64,000 nt of DNA, taken from assembly GCA_000146465.1 (NCBI GenBank), contig CP001950.1; one strand, 5' to 3'. The translations under genes were made by a program, and so were the position numbers. Below, piece by piece: positions 16,453 through 60,903 of this stretch. Position 1 is the stretch's first letter. Every line of letters begins with the position of its first letter. The notes under the pieces are model-generated. The model made no database searches, was not told where the DNA came from, and saw nothing but the letters and a program-made list of their open reading frames with translations.

Positions 16453-17535
16453 CTATAAAAAAACATCTTTGAACAATTCACTCTCCTCCGTAGGCTTACT
16501 TTTTTTTGCAGCATCCATGTCTTTCTCAACCTCCTCGAGAACACATCTTTCCAACTCCCCAAGCTCTTCCTCAGAACGGAACTCAAGAAGACGTTTCCTT
16601 ATGTCTTCCATGCAGTCGTTCTTCCTTTCTCTATCCACTTCTTCTTTGCTTCTGTATGTTTCCTTCGAATCAACTGTAGAATGTGTGCAAAGTCTGTATG
16701 TATCGATTTGCACAATAATAGGCCCTTTCTCAGCCGAGTGTTTCCTTGCATATCCAAGTACTGATATCAGCCCAAATATATTGTTGTGTGGAACTCGAAT
16801 TCCCGGAATGCGTCCTCCTCGAAGATAGAAGTTTGTGTCTGCGCTTACACTTTCTGCAGGAGTCCACATTCCATATCTGTTGTTTTCGCACACAAAAACT
16901 ATAGGAAGCTTCCAAACCATTGCCATGTTGAAGCTCTCCCACGCCTGGCCTTGGTTTGCAGCACCGTCCCCATAAAAGACATAGGAAACCTTCCCCTTCT
17001 GACTTTTGCTCCCAAGTACTCTCTCTTTGTATTTAATTGCATATGCTATACCCACTCCAAGAGGAATCTGTGCCCCAACAATTCCATGTCCTCCAAAGAA
17101 GTGACTGTTGTACAGATGCATGGATCCTCCCTTACCTTTGGAAACTCCCCCCTGCCTTCCAAGGACCTCTTGCATTATCTCACGAGTTCTACAACCAGAA
17201 ACATATGCAATTCCATGGCATCGGTATGAAGACACAACTATGTCATCATCCATCATATACTCAAGAGCAGTGTATATCCCTTCCTGCCCAATCGAAAGGT
17301 GGCAGAATCCCCTAATATTTTCTTTTTTGTACTCTATGTCCATTAGTTTGTCTACAAATCGAATCTTCATCATCTGCTTGTAAATGTATATCATCTCCTC
17401 TATTTTGAGCTTGTGTACCATATCTATTTCCTCCTTCCGGACTTCATGAACCCTGATGGTCGCAAGGATTTCCTGAACATTACACTGTATATACTTCTCC
17501 TTCTCCATTCCTCCATAATTCTGAGATGAGTTCAA
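16453..17535 (-). CDS. PDHA: pyruvate dehydrogenase E1 component alpha subunit
   Basis: IRGFCHLSIGQEG, YRCHGIAYVSG, GGVSKGKGGSMHLY, GGHGIVGAQIPLGVGIAYA, YGDGAANQGQ, VFVCENNRYGM: the full TPP-binding E1alpha signature. Confidence 0.9.
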   Translation of the reverse strand: MNSSQNYGGMEKEKYIQCNVQEILATIRVHEVRKEEIDMVHKLKIEEMIYIYKQMMKIRFVDKLMDIEYKKENIRGFCHLSIGQEGIYTALEYMMDDDIVVSSYRCHGIAYVSGCRTREIMQEVLGRQGGVSKGKGGSMHLYNSHFFGGHGIVGAQIPLGVGIAYAIKYKERVLGSKSQKGKVSYVFYGDGAANQGQAWESFNMAMVWKLPIVFVCENNRYGMWTPAESVSADTNFYLRGGRIPGIRVPHNNIFGLISVLGYARKHSAEKGPIIVQIDTYRLCTHSTVDSKETYRSKEEVDRERKNDCMEDIRKRLLEFRSEEELGELERCVLEEVEKDMDAAKKSKPTEESELFKDVFL

Positions 17536-33204: not shown

Positions 33205-34404
33205 CTATGCAGAAGAGACAGAAAGGTTCTTGCTATCCCTTTCCATACTTTCGTCAGGCTCCAGAATCCCCTCAACCATTTTTCTGAAGTTCTCGTACCC
33301 TATCTTGTAGATATTTCCCTTCTCTTGGTAAAAAGATGGCTCTCCCCCAACAGCAACCACCCTTGCATCCTCCTTTCTCTGTATTTCTTTGTACACATCA
33401 AACGAAACATCCTTCGTCGAAACCACCGTTCTTATGTCGAAACTCGAATATTCAAAGAAAAGAAGCTCGGCAAGAATCTGAGGAAGAGGACGGGCAGAGA
33501 CAAAGTAGACTGTCTGCTTTGTTCTATGGAGCTTCACAACAGAGTCGTATAGACGTGTTATTCGGCTTTTAAGTAGCCTATCTACACTGTAGAAAAGAGG
33601 CGTGCATGTAAACTTGAACCTTTCTGAGCTGTTAAATATCCTTTCAAACCGATGGTATTTGTCCCTCTTCAAGTTCCGAAGTGTAGTTGCTTCATGGCCT
33701 TCTCCTCCGTCTTCCTCACCCAAGCTCCCGAGGGTGATGATTCTAGAGCAACTGTTGTCGATGCAAAATAGAATGTCTCTGATCTCGGAGATTCTTCTTG
33801 ATGTCTCTTCCTTTGCCTGGCATCTTAGCCCTCCAATTCCAAATATGGGATCAAGATCAATCACAAATACACTTCGGACACTAGTCAACCCATCCTTGAT
33901 TTCGCACACCTCTTTGGTGGTTATTTCAGGGAGCTCAATTAGAAGTGACTTTATCTCTTCTTTTGTGTCGCTTGCTTTGTTGAATTCCCTCTTGATCATC
34001 TTGTCTCTTCTTCTGTCTGCTTCAATCTTAGATATTATAAATGAGTTTTCCGTATCTTCAAACATCTTCTCGTAATTTTTCATGCATTGGAAGTGCTTCT
34101 TCACATCCTCAAATTTCTCCCTCCTAATCAGGCCCATCTTATAGAGGTAGTAATATGTTGAGTACACATATTGATTGATGTTCTTCCTGTCCTCAATGGA
34201 GGGAACGAGTTCATCTGCAGGTGCCTCTACAGCTTCAATCAACCTTACTATAGCAGTGTTCCTTTTTGTCCCAAGTAAGCTTCGGACTTGGTCCCTTAGA
34301 GGCTGCTGGATCATCTTCGTTCTTATCTGCTCCTTGTTGTCATTTACAAATGCTTTGTCCTTGCATCTTTCCAAGAGATCCGAAATGTCCATTCCCTTTT
34401 CCAT
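33205..34404 (-). CDS. hypothetical protein (possible PIN/NYN-like nuclease fold; weak)
   Basis: 399-aa ORF. VRSVFVIDLDPIFGIGG and a later acidic cluster hint at a PIN/NYN-type fold; this is not secure. Confidence 0.35.
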   Translation of the reverse strand: MEKGMDISDLLERCKDKAFVNDNKEQIRTKMIQQPLRDQVRSLLGTKRNTAIVRLIEAVEAPADELVPSIEDRKNINQYVYSTYYYLYKMGLIRREKFEDVKKHFQCMKNYEKMFEDTENSFIISKIEADRRRDKMIKREFNKASDTKEEIKSLLIELPEITTKEVCEIKDGLTSVRSVFVIDLDPIFGIGGLRCQAKEETSRRISEIRDILFCIDNSCSRIITLGSLGEEDGGEGHEATTLRNLKRDKYHRFERIFNSSERFKFTCTPLFYSVDRLLKSRITRLYDSVVKLHRTKQTVYFVSARPLPQILAELLFFEYSSFDIRTVVSTKDVSFDVYKEIQRKEDARVVAVGGEPSFYQEKGNIYKIGYENFRKMVEGILEPDESMERDSKNLSVSSA

Positions 34405-36546: not shown

Positions 36547-36662
36547 TTCAAAGGGTTTTGAAACAGGAGAATTTCAGGTTGGAGTTATAGGACGGAATCC
36601 TATTCCATTTTCTTTTGTGCCATCTATCCTACTCCTTAGTTTGGAATAATTTTATCCATAGC

Positions 36663-37505
36663 ATGAAGTACAAAATAACATCGAAGAGACTTGATGAGAA
36701 GATCCTGGCAGTTCATGTGAACGGGGCTGTTTACACAGGCGGAACATCTAGGACATTGGTCAACCAGGATACTGGAGAAGTGATGTGCCGGTGCCGGAAG
36801 TCGATAAGATCAATAGCAAGCCATGGAAGGTACATATGCTGTGCAAGCTATGATTGCACTGCAGTGCTGTTCCACGACGGGAAGGTTGTAGATGTCATCG
36901 AGGGCCCAGACACAGAGATCAAATGTGTTGGATTTTCCGAGGATGGACGGTATCTAGCCATGGCTACACGAGGAAAGTCGGTGTGGGTGGTGAAGATAGA
37001 CCCCGAGATAGAAATCGACGAGATTATAGAGGATCATCTTCATGATGTAAAGGGTTGTGTGTTCCATAAGGGATTTCTATTTACATATGGATACGACAAC
37101 ACAATAAAGATCTACGAAAGGTTTGACTACGATGACTCCTGGGAACTTGTGCAGTCGATCAGTGAGAAAAATACAGTATGGTGTGTTATATTTCACGGGG
37201 ATAAAATGGTATGTTCCACCGAGGAAGGGACGATCAGCTCGTATGTGCTGAGAAATGGGTGGGAGCTCGAGGCATGCAAGAAGTTGTCGATATTTCCTAT
37301 CTATTCGATTTGTAGTGTTGGGAGGGATATGGCATACGTTTTGAACAGAAACAACATCGGGATTATCGACAGTAACCTGAACCTTACCACGACTATTGAG
37401 GATATACATGAAGACTTCATAAATGGAATTGCATATGATGAAGGACGAGGCAGGATAATCAGTGGAGGAGACGATGGGATTCTGAATGTGATCGAGATGT
37501 TTTAG
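36663..37505 (+). CDS. CIA1: cytosolic iron-sulfur assembly protein CIA1/CIAO1 (WD40)
   Basis: EGPDTEIKCVGFSEDGRYLAMATRGKSVWVVKIDPE..E..IEDHLHDVKGCVFH...YDNTIKIYERFDYDDSWELVQSISEKNTVWCVIFHGD matches the CIAO1 pattern EGHENEVK..KSVWVW..H.QDVK..SYDDT.K.Y...DW...GH.STVW. Confidence 0.75.
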   Translation: MKYKITSKRLDEKILAVHVNGAVYTGGTSRTLVNQDTGEVMCRCRKSIRSIASHGRYICCASYDCTAVLFHDGKVVDVIEGPDTEIKCVGFSEDGRYLAMATRGKSVWVVKIDPEIEIDEIIEDHLHDVKGCVFHKGFLFTYGYDNTIKIYERFDYDDSWELVQSISEKNTVWCVIFHGDKMVCSTEEGTISSYVLRNGWELEACKKLSIFPIYSICSVGRDMAYVLNRNNIGIIDSNLNLTTTIEDIHEDFINGIAYDEGRGRIISGGDDGILNVIEMF

Positions 37506-37550
37506 AATCCTTTTTTAAAAAGGCGATAAAATTTTGCCCCTAAAGAAAGG

Positions 37551-37654
37551 ATGCAATTGACAAGGAAGACTAATCAACTGGCTATTCCTGATCTCTCAGG
37601 AAAGGTAACTGTGAAGGATCTACTGGAGGCTTTTTCGAAGTATGAAAAGGAAAT
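37551..37654 (+). CDS. RRM RNA-binding protein, exon 1 (two-RRM protein)
   Basis: ATG at 37551, preceded by ccccTAAAGAAAGG. Encodes MQLTRKTNQLAIPDLSGKVTVKDLLEAFSKYEKE and ends in phase 2 immediately before GTAAGT. Confidence 0.6.
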
Positions 37655-37729
37655 GTAAGTGAAGATAAAGTATCCTTGGTTCGTGAAACTGAGCCATGAT
37701 GAGAACTTTGGGCAGATACTAACTTTTAG
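37655..37729 (+). other. spliceosomal intron (75 nt): 5' GTAAGTG ... TACTAAC (37717..37723) ... TTTTAG 3'
   Basis: GTAAGT at 37655. A perfect yeast-type branch site TACTAAC lies 6 nt upstream of the AG at 37728..37729. The intron contains the in-frame TAA (37656) that otherwise splits the gene. Removal joins at|a to an Ile codon and keeps the RRM reading frame. Confidence 0.65.
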
Positions 37730-38183
37730 AACAAGCGTCAAGCTTAGCAAGCAAAGGAGATCAAGAGATGAGGATCTCAAGGTTGGATATGTTGAGTTTG
37801 AAACGGTTGAGGATACGGAAAAGGCCTATGGAGAGGGAAGCATCAAGGTTGGGGGAGAGATGAAGGCTCTACACTATGCAAAGAGAAAGGACCAAAGAAT
37901 GAGAGAACGGGTTGTTGTTTCTAACAAGAAGGTGTATATTTCTGGAATTCCCGAGGATACCGACAAGGACGAGCTTTCTGCACTCTTGGGAAATTGCAGG
38001 ATATCTGGAGGAGACAAGGGCAAAAGCTATCTTTTTGCAGAGTATGACAACAGCGAGGAACAGGAGAAGGCACTGAACAGAATCAATAACTCGAAGATCA
38101 AAGGCTCTAAGTTGTTTGCAACTCAAGCATATGAAAAGGCAAACATTGGAAGAACTGGTAGAAAGAGGAGCGATTCCAATTAA
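37730..38183 (+). CDS. RRM RNA-binding protein, exon 2
   Basis: RNP1-like GYVEFETVEDTEKAY closes RRM1. A second RRM follows: KVYISGIPEDTDKDELSALLGNC...KSYLFAEYDNSEEQEKAL...IKGSKLF. Confidence 0.7.
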
Positions 38184-38267
38184 ACAGGTTTTAGTTTTTA
38201 CACTATGTTCTAGGCAGTCCGTTACTCCTGGGGTTTGATTATATTTTTTCAGCTTTCTGGCCGTGAG

Positions 38268-39131
38268 ATGTCTTGCTTTGACTCCACGCTTGTGGTGGAA
38301 ACAGACGCAGTGAAGGATTTCAAGCTTCCCCACACACGGCAGATGATTCTTGTGAAGAATGTGTCTTCTATCCAGAGTTCCCCATTTCCCAAGTATCTCC
38401 ATGTGTTTGGTAGAAGCTGTATGTCCTATCAGCTTGCTCCATTCAAGTTGCTCAGAACTTTTGAGTACAGCGAAGATGTGATGGATGCAGTGGCCATCCG
38501 AGGCAAGATGGCTGTTCTCTCTAGAGACTCGATAGTTGTCTGGAACAAAGGGAAAGAGCAAGTTATTGCAGGGAAGTTTGATGGAAGACTCTCAGAAGTA
38601 GACGGGTGCCTCGGAGTTCAGGAACGGGCCAAGTTGTCGGTGTATTCGTTGGAGACGTTGGAGGTGATGAAGGTGTACAAGGCAAATGCCCACTGTTCAA
38701 TAAGAGACGTGCTTGTGACATCTCTGGATAATCTGGTTTCTTTGTACTTCAAGGGGGGAAAGATACTTGAGATTTCGATGCCGGAGGCAATATGTAAGCT
38801 GTGCACCGACCCACTACTTACAAACATATACTGTGGAACAGGTAGTGGAACCATATTCTGCTGCAACACAAGCAATGGAGAGCCAAGTAGTATGAAGTAC
38901 CATAGAAGCCAGGTTGTGGGGCTGGGCATAAGTTTCTGTGGAAAGTACTTGTACTCTGCAGACATGGAGGGTCTTGTGTGCATATGGGATACAAAGTTCA
39001 ACACGGTGGTTGGAAAAGTGTCCATGGAGTCGGAAATAAGGAGGATGAAAGTGGTATATGTCTCCGAGTGGAGAAAAGCTCTGGACACGCCAGAGGATGA
39101 TCTAATAATTCCAGGGGGGACAACAAAATAA
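38268..39131 (+). CDS. WD40-repeat protein (hypothetical)
   Basis: C-terminal WD-like repeat GLVCIWDTKFNTVVGKV and earlier beta-propeller-like repeats. Start placed at Met of MSCFDS. Confidence 0.45.
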   Translation: MSCFDSTLVVETDAVKDFKLPHTRQMILVKNVSSIQSSPFPKYLHVFGRSCMSYQLAPFKLLRTFEYSEDVMDAVAIRGKMAVLSRDSIVVWNKGKEQVIAGKFDGRLSEVDGCLGVQERAKLSVYSLETLEVMKVYKANAHCSIRDVLVTSLDNLVSLYFKGGKILEISMPEAICKLCTDPLLTNIYCGTGSGTIFCCNTSNGEPSSMKYHRSQVVGLGISFCGKYLYSADMEGLVCIWDTKFNTVVGKVSMESEIRRMKVVYVSEWRKALDTPEDDLIIPGGTTK

Positions 39132-43981: not shown

Positions 43982-44719
43982 CTACCATCTTCTAACTCTT
44001 GGGTACTCCTCGTCCCTCCTTCCCTTCGTTCGCTTAGAATGGTTGTGGTTTCCTTGTCCATCCAATCTTCTTCTAGACATTCCATAACTTTCATGAGGAT
44101 TTCCGTTTCTTATCGGCCCCTTTCTCAGGTTCTCTCCCGAGGCTTTGGCCCCACCATCAAACCAAGTGCTTTTTGTTCCTTTCTCTCCATACAATAGTCC
44201 CTGGGATTCAAACAATTCCTCTGCAAGATCGGTAGACACTCGGGCAGAGTGTATGAAACCACACTTCTCTCCCTTTTCGCACTTCTCCTTCTCATTGTCT
44301 GTGCACATTCCATCGTCTATCCTGTAGCAGTTTCCAAGTTCTGCAGCTATTCTCCTCCCGCTGTAGTATCTCTTTCCAATTTCTTCAACACATCTTAGTG
44401 CTGTCTTCTCTTCTTCAAACTCAATGTAGATATTTCCTAGGAGCTGGGAAGAGCTGTTGGAAGCAATAACAAGTCTTCGAATGGACCCATATCTTATAGA
44501 CAGCTCGGAAAACCAATCTTCGTAGAAAAGATCAAGATGGATCTGGATGGATTCCTTGCTCAGTGTGGATTCTGGATCATTCTTAGGATACAAGTACATT
44601 CCTTTTACAACAACAACCTTGCCTCTTATAGGAATCCGATGGGCTTTTGTGCACTCAAGACCATATCTGCATGCATTGGTTTTTGAGTAAAAAAGACATG
44701 TGTCTCTCCCTGTAGCCAT
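43982..44719 (-). CDS. U2AF1: U2 snRNP auxiliary factor small subunit (U2AF35-like: ZnF-RRM-ZnF)
   Basis: CLFYSKTNACRYGLECTKAHRIP (C3H1 finger 1); LGNIYIEFEEEKTALRCVEEIGKRYYSGRRIAAEL (UHM); CTDNEKEKCEKGEKCGFIH (finger 2). Collinear with human U2AF1. Confidence 0.75.
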   Translation of the reverse strand: MATGRDTCLFYSKTNACRYGLECTKAHRIPIRGKVVVVKGMYLYPKNDPESTLSKESIQIHLDLFYEDWFSELSIRYGSIRRLVIASNSSSQLLGNIYIEFEEEKTALRCVEEIGKRYYSGRRIAAELGNCYRIDDGMCTDNEKEKCEKGEKCGFIHSARVSTDLAEELFESQGLLYGEKGTKSTWFDGGAKASGENLRKGPIRNGNPHESYGMSRRRLDGQGNHNHSKRTKGRRDEEYPRVRRW

Positions 44720-46201: not shown

Positions 46202-46274
46202 CGTTCCGGGTGGGACTCGAACCCACGACCTCAGCTTTAGGAGAGCCGCGCTCTACCAACTGAGCTACAGGAAC
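46202..46274 (-). tRNA. tRNA-Arg (anticodon CCU)
   Basis: The minus strand folds as GTTCCTG / TA / GCTC-AGTTGGTA-GAGC / G / CGGCT-CTCCTAA-AGCTG / AGGTC / GTGGG-TTCGAGT-CCCAC / CCGGAAC-G. The 7-nt loop has CCT at positions 34-36. One U6:C67 acceptor-stem mismatch. Internal A/B-box-like GGTAGAGC and GGTTCGAGTCC are present. Confidence 0.8.
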
Positions 46275-59855: not shown

Positions 59856-59916
59856 TGTAGACAAGGACATGTGTCACATGTGTAAGTTTTTGGTAAGTTC
59901 CAATTTTGATGCCCCG

Positions 59917-60903
59917 ATGAAACTTATAACCGACGGAGTCTGGTCTCTTTCAAGAACACATTTAAGAATACTTCGGACTGCAGAGCAATGCATGAAGTCA
60001 CACGTGGTTATTCCCTTTGATGTGCTGAAGACCAGATCACAAATAAAAGGCAACTTCATGGAGCATGTGATAGATCTGTGCAAACTCAAGTTCCTTTCTT
60101 ATGTGGAGAATGGATACAAACTGACGTACTCTGGACATGATTGCCTTGCAATTAACACACTGAGGTCACGCGGGCTTGAAGCAATGGGAGAAAAGATAGG
60201 GATTGGAAAGGAGTCTGACATTTATCTCGGGGTGTACAAGGGAAAGGATTCAATATTGAAGCTCCACAGGCTTGGGCGGAGCAGTTTTCGAAATGTGAGG
60301 AGAAATCGGGAATACGCAGGGGAGAAGACAGATTGGCTTGCATTGTCAAGAACTTCTTGTAGAAGAGAAGTTGAGTACTTGGAAAAGTTCAAGGACATGA
60401 ATGTTCCTGCAGTACTTGACCATGACAGACATGCTATTGTGCAGGAGTTGCTGGATTATCTCCCCTTATACAAGACAAGAGTGGAGAATGTGAAGACGAT
60501 TTTTTATCTTATGATAGACTTCATTAAGGACCTATGGAAAAGAGGATATGTGCACGGAGACTTCAATGAATTCAATGTTCTGGTGAAAGACGACATAAAG
60601 GTCATAGACTTTCCTCAGTGCATCCAGAGCAACGATGAGAGAGCAGTAAGCTACCTGAGAAGAGACTTTGAATGCGTCCTAACATATTTCAAAAAGAAAT
60701 ACAGATACGAGCCGGAGAATGGATGTTCTAAGTTTATGAGGGAATTGGGGATAGAAGACTTCCTAGATGAGCCTGAGACTTATGGGACTGATTCTGAGGA
60801 TTCATCCCTCTATTCGACTGATGAAGTGGGTTCCCAAAAGGAGATGGAGCTTCTAGAGACAAAAATGGAGAAGACTTTCATTTCTGATACCCAGAGTGCA
60901 TAA
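59917..60903 (+). CDS. RIO2: RIO2 serine kinase (40S maturation)
   Basis: N-terminal winged helix (LRILRTAEQCMKSHVVIPF...YKLTYSGHDCLAINTL). RIO domain GIGKESDIYLG, LKLHRLGRSSFRNV, DWLALSR, and the catalytic YVHGDFNEFNVLV...IDFPQ. Start moved to Met of MKLITDG to remove the overlap. Confidence 0.85.
   Translation: MKLITDGVWSLSRTHLRILRTAEQCMKSHVVIPFDVLKTRSQIKGNFMEHVIDLCKLKFLSYVENGYKLTYSGHDCLAINTLRSRGLEAMGEKIGIGKESDIYLGVYKGKDSILKLHRLGRSSFRNVRRNREYAGEKTDWLALSRTSCRREVEYLEKFKDMNVPAVLDHDRHAIVQELLDYLPLYKTRVENVKTIFYLMIDFIKDLWKRGYVHGDFNEFNVLVKDDIKVIDFPQCIQSNDERAVSYLRRDFECVLTYFKKKYRYEPENGCSKFMRELGIEDFLDEPETYGTDSEDSSLYSTDEVGSQKEMELLETKMEKTFISDTQSA

Follow-up and report, generated by a model that had tools for sequence, protein, structure and literature searches.

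We analysed a window of 64,000 nucleotides (nt; GenBank assembly GCA_000146465.1, contig CP001950.1) that lies on Encephalitozoon intestinalis chromosome IX, four of the proteins that it encodes matching the GenBank entries of strain ATCC 50506 exactly. The subject is the plus-strand gene Eint_091220, which encodes a protein with two RRM domains, its intron of 75 nt, and the small nucleolar RNA (snoRNA) of the box C/D type that the body of this intron may carry. The gene and its splice signals are laid out as follows.

37551..37654, plus strand: exon 1 of Eint_091220, with the ATG at 37551; 34 codons and 2 nt, encoding the N-terminal part of RRM1
37655..37729, plus strand: the intron, 75 nt, phase 2, GT-AG, spliceosomal, of the 'Poly-A long intron' family
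37655..37660, plus strand: 5' splice site GUAAGU, invariant in 11 orthologues; its first 3 nt (GUA) are complementary to the UAC at 37717..37719
37717..37723, plus strand: branch-point motif UACUAAC; its branch A (37722) precedes the final base of the intron by 7 nt
37728..37729, plus strand: 3' splice site AG, the end of TTTTAG
37730..38183, plus strand: exon 2 of Eint_091220, with the remainder of RRM1, RRM2, a basic tail and the stop codon

Joining position 37654 to position 37730 creates an ATA (Ile) codon and an uninterrupted coding sequence of 558 nt, the 185-residue product of which contains RRM_1 in two stretches (Pfam, E 2e-14) and has as its nearest solved structures by sequence those of tandem-RRM nucleolin RBD1-2, Pab1 and hnRNP A1. 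This predicted product is identical to ADM12251.2 at 185/185 residues, so that GenBank already holds exactly these boundaries, and the full-length orthologues of Encephalitozoon hellem and Encephalitozoon romaleae are annotated with the same join. The initial annotation, which had been made from the letters of the window, is thus correct in all its coordinates (ATG at 37551, GTAAGTG at 37655..37661, TACTAAC at 37717..37723, AG at 37728..37729 and the 75-nt segment), in joining at to a within an Ile codon to give a continuous two-RRM protein, and in recognizing that this non-ribosomal gene has a genuine microsporidian spliceosomal intron, which the identity with Eint_091220 and the shared join of the annotated orthologues bear out. 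It had also held that the unspliced transcript carries a stop codon. An in-frame TAA does stand at 37656..37658, and unspliced RNA terminates one codon into the intron, but this is no independent evidence for splicing, because a phase-2 GTAAGT donor automatically reads xxG/TAA GT. The segment 37655..37729 is confirmed as a genuine U2-type GT-AG spliceosomal intron of Eint_091220 and, as an intron, is already known from GenBank and from three papers.

In the literature Eint_091220 is named in the legend to the alignment in Fig. 1 of Whelan et al. (2018; PMC6349667), which concerns the microsporidian 'Poly-A long intron' family, first recognized as the intron of ECU09_1470, the Encephalitozoon cuniculi orthologue. 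Introns of this family occur in Poly-A-binding-like and RPS23 genes (Lee et al., 2010; Grisdale et al., 2013; Whelan et al., 2018, PMC6349667). The intron of ECU09_1470 has 76 nt and is the longest of its species; in RNA-seq data it is spliced at about 80%, the highest level, as against less than 20% for most short introns (Whelan et al., 2018, PMC6349667). The features that define the family (host gene, position, a length of about 75 nt, an internal conserved region and an extended branch point) are all found in the window intron, which also shares with its relatives the phase, the range of 75–78 nt, GUAAGU, the extended UACUAAC and the internal CUGA and UGAUGA, and shows no structural difference from them. 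With the short Encephalitozoon introns (22–52 nt, mostly in ribosomal protein genes) it has in common the GT-AG ends, a GUAAGU-type donor and a CTAAYTT motif near the AG, the window intron's CTAACTT matching the E. cuniculi consensus CTAAYTT. The short introns differ in being two to three times shorter, in lying mostly right after the ATG, in being for the most part spliced at less than 20%, and in having no conserved interior.

Further support for the boundaries comes from a contig (JGI 3300030740, Ga0265460_10432413, 1-981), which carries an intron-less orthologue (59% identity) with the junction exactly at GAAAT|AACC. A run of about 30 A residues begins 17 nt past its stop codon and is followed by low-complexity sequence, and its 5' end lies within the upstream WD40 gene. 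By these features the contig appears to be a read-through mRNA, spliced and polyadenylated, from a microsporidian relative; if it is genomic instead, it represents a precise intron loss, and in either case the intron boundaries are supported. Its start position suggests that transcripts can begin inside the upstream gene.

The window was scanned on both strands for further introns, as the initial annotation had proposed for the whole assembly, and the strict composite GTAAGT...TACTAAC...AG occurs a single time, at this intron; no second credible intron emerged. Two candidates from a relaxed scan were taken as chance matches. That at 16696..16721 yields an open reading frame (ORF) of only 65 amino acids, and that at 59882..59938 (GTAAGT...TTATAAC...AG) falls within an uninterrupted 355-amino-acid ORF for a kinase, presumably RIO2-like, just upstream of its likely start MKLITDG....

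Eleven syntenic orthologous loci share the phase-2 intron. The gene order HEAT-repeat, WD40, RRM, WD40, Rab, P4-ATPase is common to the longer of these loci, the short contigs showing it only in part. Within the intron the column identity is 87–91%, and among nine orthologues the mean pairwise nucleotide identity is higher in the intron (0.88) than in exon 2 (0.73) or in exon 1 (0.68, a value somewhat lowered by two loci assigned an ATG upstream of the likely start). The conservation is distributed in blocks: GUAAGUGA-GA, AUCCUUGGUUCGUGA, CUGA, UGAUGA and C-GAUACUAA (a dash marking a varying position) are invariant in the 11-sequence alignment, and the 4–5 nt between CUGA and UGAUGA, like the 10–13 nt ahead of the branch region, vary freely. 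A profile search for more distant orthologues reached Ordospora but neither Nosema nor Vavraia. Two metagenome scans were made for additional copies of the intron: the first returned nothing, and a contig matched in the second (L012), which is AT-rich and has no other similarity, was judged a chance match. Public gene models at these loci can be truncated. In E. cuniculi GCA_027571585.1 (CP091433.1; L005:2853-3486) the 161-amino-acid protein P0004, named 'heterogeneous nuclear ribonucleoprotein A2/B1', begins at an ATG within the UGAUGA box of the intron, lacks exon 1 and reads the 3' part of the intron as MRTLRQILTSR...; the Logan gene calls P0003, P0005, P0007 and P0009–P0011 have the same truncation.

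The order and spacing of the conserved blocks suggest what the intron carries. We put at about three in four the probability that some 65 of its 75 nt constitute a box C/D snoRNA of the U18/SNORD18 type, with the following elements.

37655-58, plus strand: leader, 4 nt
37659..37665, plus strand: box C-like GUGAAGA (consensus RUGAUGA), set 4 nt in from the intron's 5' end, where Rfam C/D models place box C
37673..37685, plus strand: guide UCCUUGGUUCGUG, 13 nt, invariant in 11 orthologues and complementary to CACGGACCAAGGA of the large-subunit (LSU) rRNA
37686-88, plus strand: spacer AAA between guide and box D'
37689..37692, plus strand: box D' CUGA, invariant in 11 orthologues, where Rfam snoR30 and SNORD18 place D'
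37693-96, plus strand: D'–C' loop, 4 nt (4–5 nt and variable among the orthologues)
37697..37702, plus strand: box C' UGAUGA, 4 nt past D', invariant in 11 orthologues
37703-12, plus strand: spacer, 10 nt
37713..37716, plus strand: box D-like CAGA (consensus CUGA), which is CUGA in Ordospora colligata and in its close relative L014
37717-19, plus strand: UAC, the 3' side of a putative terminal stem, pairing with the first three intron bases GUA (37655-57)

The GUA/UAC stem is invariant and closes the minimum-free-energy fold; it has only 3 bp and shows no covariation. The bases of the D'–C' loop (A3 columns 40-44, 37693-37696) change mostly by transitions that keep G–C, G–U or A–U pairing with the invariant UUGG of the guide, and a fold-back masking the guide may thus be under some constraint alongside snoRNA function.

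An argument for the snoRNA comes from the guide. It forms with CACGGACCAAGGA 13 contiguous pairs, one of them G–U, at −23.1 kcal/mol in 11 of the 11 orthologues (RNAduplex), an energy reached by none of 2000 dinucleotide shuffles of each sequence. CACGGACCAAGGA lies within the conserved LSU rRNA stretch ...UUGAAACACGGACCAAGGAGA...; the target sequence was taken as the complement of primer HG4R (TCTCCTTGGTCCGTGTTTCAA), which has been used on microsporidia, together with general eukaryotic conservation, and this complement has an overlap with ls580r, a primer for microsporidia, as well as with universal 28S primers that include AACACGGACCAAGG. Box C/D guides select for methylation the rRNA nucleotide that pairs with the guide base five nucleotides upstream of D or D'. 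In the intron U37684 occupies that position relative to D' and stands opposite the A of CACGG in AAACA*CGG, and the nucleotide predicted to be methylated is the A of GAAACACGG, equivalent to yeast 25S-Am649 (2'-O-methyladenosine at position 649). Yeast A649 is one that we take to stand in exactly the context AAACA*CGG. The Rfam SNORD18 consensus GGUCCGUGUUUCUGA presents the same guide in the same register as the intron, independently of that assumption. Like SNORD18, the D' guide is complementary to LSU ...AACACGGACC... in the register that selects the equivalent of yeast A649.

Comparison with U18 (SNORD18, snR18; RF00093) extends this likeness: in both, the guide lies upstream of D', is complementary to ...ACACGGACC..., and has the same register and the same modified A. 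U18 guides 25S-Am649 and the neighbouring position 650 in yeast, its two Arabidopsis forms (U18-1 and U18-2) target Am660, and the Neurospora crassa homologues CD46A and CD46B, which are intron-encoded, use D' to target 26S-Am635. U18 is encoded in introns in N. crassa and yeast, as the window candidate would be, and the two intronic copies of N. crassa parallel the pair of Poly-A and S23 introns. Unlike SNORD18, the intron has AAA rather than UUU beside D', and its pairing with rRNA reaches further 3' (to AAGGA); it differs from U18, moreover, in that the terminal boxes of Encephalitozoon are degenerate and in that the putative snoRNA fills the intron, its ends being the 5' splice site and the branch point.

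The Ordospora introns found by the profile search, those of O. colligata and L014, bear directly on the degenerate boxes. The O. colligata intron reads GUAA-GUGAUGA-...-AUCCUUGGUUCGUGAAA-CUGA-ACUG-UGAUGA-...-CUGA-UACUAAC, with exact-consensus GUGAUGA and CUGA at the columns that hold GUGAAGA and CAGA in Encephalitozoon; L014 has GUGAAGA and CUGA. Box C position 5 and box D position 2 (A3 columns 9 and 64; 37663 and 37714) are accordingly U/U in O. colligata, A/U in L014 and A/A in the other nine sequences, and a C/D kink-turn should bring these two positions opposite each other. The change from CAGA to CUGA in O. colligata weakens the extended pairing with U2 that has been proposed for this site and at the same time creates a consensus box D. 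The U2-pairing and box D roles of the site may coexist.

In a permissive Rfam scan, 8 of the 10 matches on the window intron and 25 of the 29 on the O. colligata intron are to box C/D families, all of them below the curated thresholds. The best alignment for both introns is that of Plasmodium snoR30 (RF01605), in which box C, guide, D' CUGA, C' and D are collinear; aligned end-to-end with the window intron, its box C falls on GUGAAGA, its guide CUUGGUcuGUG on CUUGGUUCGUG and its D' on CUGA, at 18.8 bits, as against 26.5 bits (E 0.013) for O. colligata and a threshold of 43. End-to-end alignment of the O. colligata intron with SNORD18 gives 22.6 bits (E 0.017), with the guide GGUCCGUGUUUCUGA opposite GGUUCGUGAAACUGA. 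A relaxed C–D'–C'–D pattern matches the window once, at the intron, where 0.0067 matches are expected; it was written after the sequence had been seen, and the figure shows rarity only. The claim of a U18-like function is stronger than a claim of recognizable membership of SNORD18 by sequence.

U1 recognizes the perfect GUAAGU and U2 the UACUAAC near the AG, and splicing restores the 185-residue two-RRM protein; so much has been shown here or is on record for orthologues. If the snoRNA is real, the intron could go on to work as follows. In yeast, U18 and U24 mature by debranching and exonuclease trimming; by analogy with these, the excised intron would be debranched and trimmed to a snoRNA of about 65 nt, which would assemble with Snu13, Nop56/58 and fibrillarin, and the resulting ribonucleoprotein would direct 2'-O-methylation of the A in LSU rRNA ...GAAACA*CGGACCAAGG.... 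GUA from the 5' splice site and UAC from the branch-point motif, in each case the opening three bases, would make up the terminal stem. Such a function would explain why the intron is conserved above its exons, with an invariant guide beside variable spacers, why it is retained in every intron-bearing microsporidian, why it is efficiently spliced and sits in a highly expressed host gene, and why other species have a near-identical intron in the unrelated RPS23 gene, there as a snoRNA paralogue. On balance, and on sequence grounds, we favour the view that the microsporidian 'long intron' is a minimal U18 snoRNA gene in which splicing signals and snoRNA ends share nucleotides. That the 5' splice site and the branch-point region together make a terminal C/D kink-turn, and that the Poly-A-like and RPS23 introns are snoRNA paralogues, we likewise hold to be somewhat on the probable side.

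Several observations weigh against a snoRNA in the intron. Both terminal boxes of E. intestinalis, GUGAAGA and CAGA, carry one mismatch to the consensus, and the terminal stem of only 3 bp overlaps splice signals that U1 and U2 must bind. Three guide positions beside D' are unpaired (A opposite A), where SNORD18 has UUU, and the target was taken from published primers and eukaryotic conservation rather than from E. intestinalis rDNA. No Rfam family attains its gathering score on the intron; SNORD18 itself, with a gathering threshold of 41 bits, stays at 22.6 bits for O. colligata and is unlisted at E ≤ 10 for the E. intestinalis intron in the Rfam scan. Finally, CAGA accords with the extended pairing to U2 that Whelan et al. 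(2018) have proposed, and the internal hairpin of the same authors is 97.5% paired in the alignment, its changes being one-sided transitions only.

The last two points belong to the alternative that we take most seriously, though we consider it improbable: that this is an ordinary, highly optimized intron, the conserved interior of which acts purely in cis, through extended U2 pairing and a hairpin, and the excised RNA of which has no function. A hyperextended pairing of the branch point with U2 and a conserved stem-loop were put forward by Whelan et al. (2018; PMC6349667), CAGAUACUAAC is invariant across nine Encephalitozoon-like sequences, and the highest splicing level in E. cuniculi belongs to ECU09_1470, all as such a view would have it. 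At gathering thresholds Rfam finds only a tRNA-Arg in the window, and so no snRNA gene against which to set this pairing. The hairpin, however, shows no double-sided compensatory change in the 11-sequence alignment and has an invariant 5' arm, and the fold of the intron is no more stable than its shuffles (z −0.89, and +0.46 for Ordospora; the three values obtained, −0.89, −1.55 and +0.46, are not significant). A role in cis alone, moreover, leaves unexplained both the 13-nt match in perfect register to the U18 methylation site and the change of CAGA to CUGA in Ordospora together with its 5' GUGAUGA.

The same C/D-like motifs might instead form kink-turns (K-turns) to which, on the pre-mRNA, Snu13 or the host RRM protein attaches to aid or regulate splicing, with no methylation involved. 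Snu13 is common to the U4 snRNP and the snoRNPs, and the autoregulation of yeast RPL30 provides a model; by sequence inspection the motifs that contain GA, terminal and internal alike, have K-turn/K-loop geometry, and Whelan et al. (2018; PMC6349667) allowed that a spliceosomal protein might bind the conserved loop in the interior. No evidence of autoregulation was found, and a K-turn that binds a protein has no need for an invariant 13-nt antisense element exactly 3 nt from CUGA; we regard this alternative as very unlikely. Least credible of all is that no splicing takes place, the locus being two separate genes or a disrupted gene with a chance likeness to splice signals. Automatic gene callers do divide it into ORFs of 35 and 174 amino acids, but the composite signal is unique in the window, curated orthologues have the same join, conservation of the intronic block extends over 11 taxa, a relative has yielded a spliced and polyadenylated contig, and RNA-seq data have been published for ECU09_1470.

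The surroundings of the gene are compact. Same-strand WD40-repeat genes lie on either side of it (36615-37505 and 38235-39131), at gaps of only about 45–50 nt, the upstream one of which contains a further feature.

37528..37540, plus strand: AAAATTTTGCCCC, an AAATTT plus CCC motif resembling a promoter or transcription start site, 10 nt upstream of the ATG

This motif is kept as AAAAATTTGCCCC ahead of most orthologues, and AAATTTNNCCC has four copies in the window, the others being at 34111, 52479 (minus strand) and 58539. Belkorchia et al. (2017) describe CCC-like motifs close to sites where transcription begins, and AAATTT/CCC start signals have been described for Encephalitozoon. The only RNA gene that reaches an Rfam gathering score in the window is a tRNA-Arg (CCT) at 46202-46274 on the minus strand. 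The initial annotation had also pointed to a U2AF35 gene 6 kb from the intron. The ORF is there, at 43982-44719 (43982..44719), but on the minus strand. Its U2AF35-like product, of 245 amino acids with zf-CCCH and RRM domains and an arginine-rich C-terminal tail, has the same sequence as E. intestinalis ADM12256.1 ('putative U2 small nuclear RNA auxiliary factor'); no link of this gene to the intron was found.

As regards novelty, Whelan et al. (2018; PMC6349667) had noted the conservation of the intron, its CUGA and UGAUGA and a possible hairpin, and had speculated on a 'highly divergent snoRNA', giving no target, terminal boxes or family. In the searchable literature (which excludes subscription-only papers and theses) we found no link of a microsporidian intron to U18/SNORD18 and no rRNA target for one, and what is new here, and seems to be unreported, is the reading of the intron body as a U18-type guide RNA. 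Microsporidia retain the snoRNP proteins, and few microsporidian snoRNAs are known. The Encephalitozoon C/D guides described by Belkorchia et al. (2017), namely U31/snR67, U38/snR61 and U40-U46/snR63, all target the LSU; the survey covered intergenic DNA only, intronic non-coding RNAs having been ruled out beforehand as unlikely, and so did not take in the present locus. The window candidate shares with these snoRNAs a compact form and the restriction to LSU rRNA targets, and differs from them in that they are free-standing intergenic genes with CCC/TATA signals of their own.

Considering a U18-type guide within the intron, the reading predicts an RNA of about 65 nt and Am at one defined position of the LSU rRNA. 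If it is true, the very small snoRNA set of Encephalitozoon would gain a fourth guide with a methylation target, and intergenic-only surveys would have missed an intronic snoRNA. It would also answer the question that Whelan et al. left of why one long, efficiently spliced intron, conserved above its host exons, is kept by all intron-bearing microsporidia and is found nearly unaltered in two unrelated genes. The intron would then be an extreme case, shrunk to the size of the RNA that it carries, with intron and snoRNA almost coextensive, and the need to release the guide would help to explain its survival under extreme genome reduction. More speculatively, the retention of a working spliceosome by intron-bearing microsporidia could be connected with the same need.

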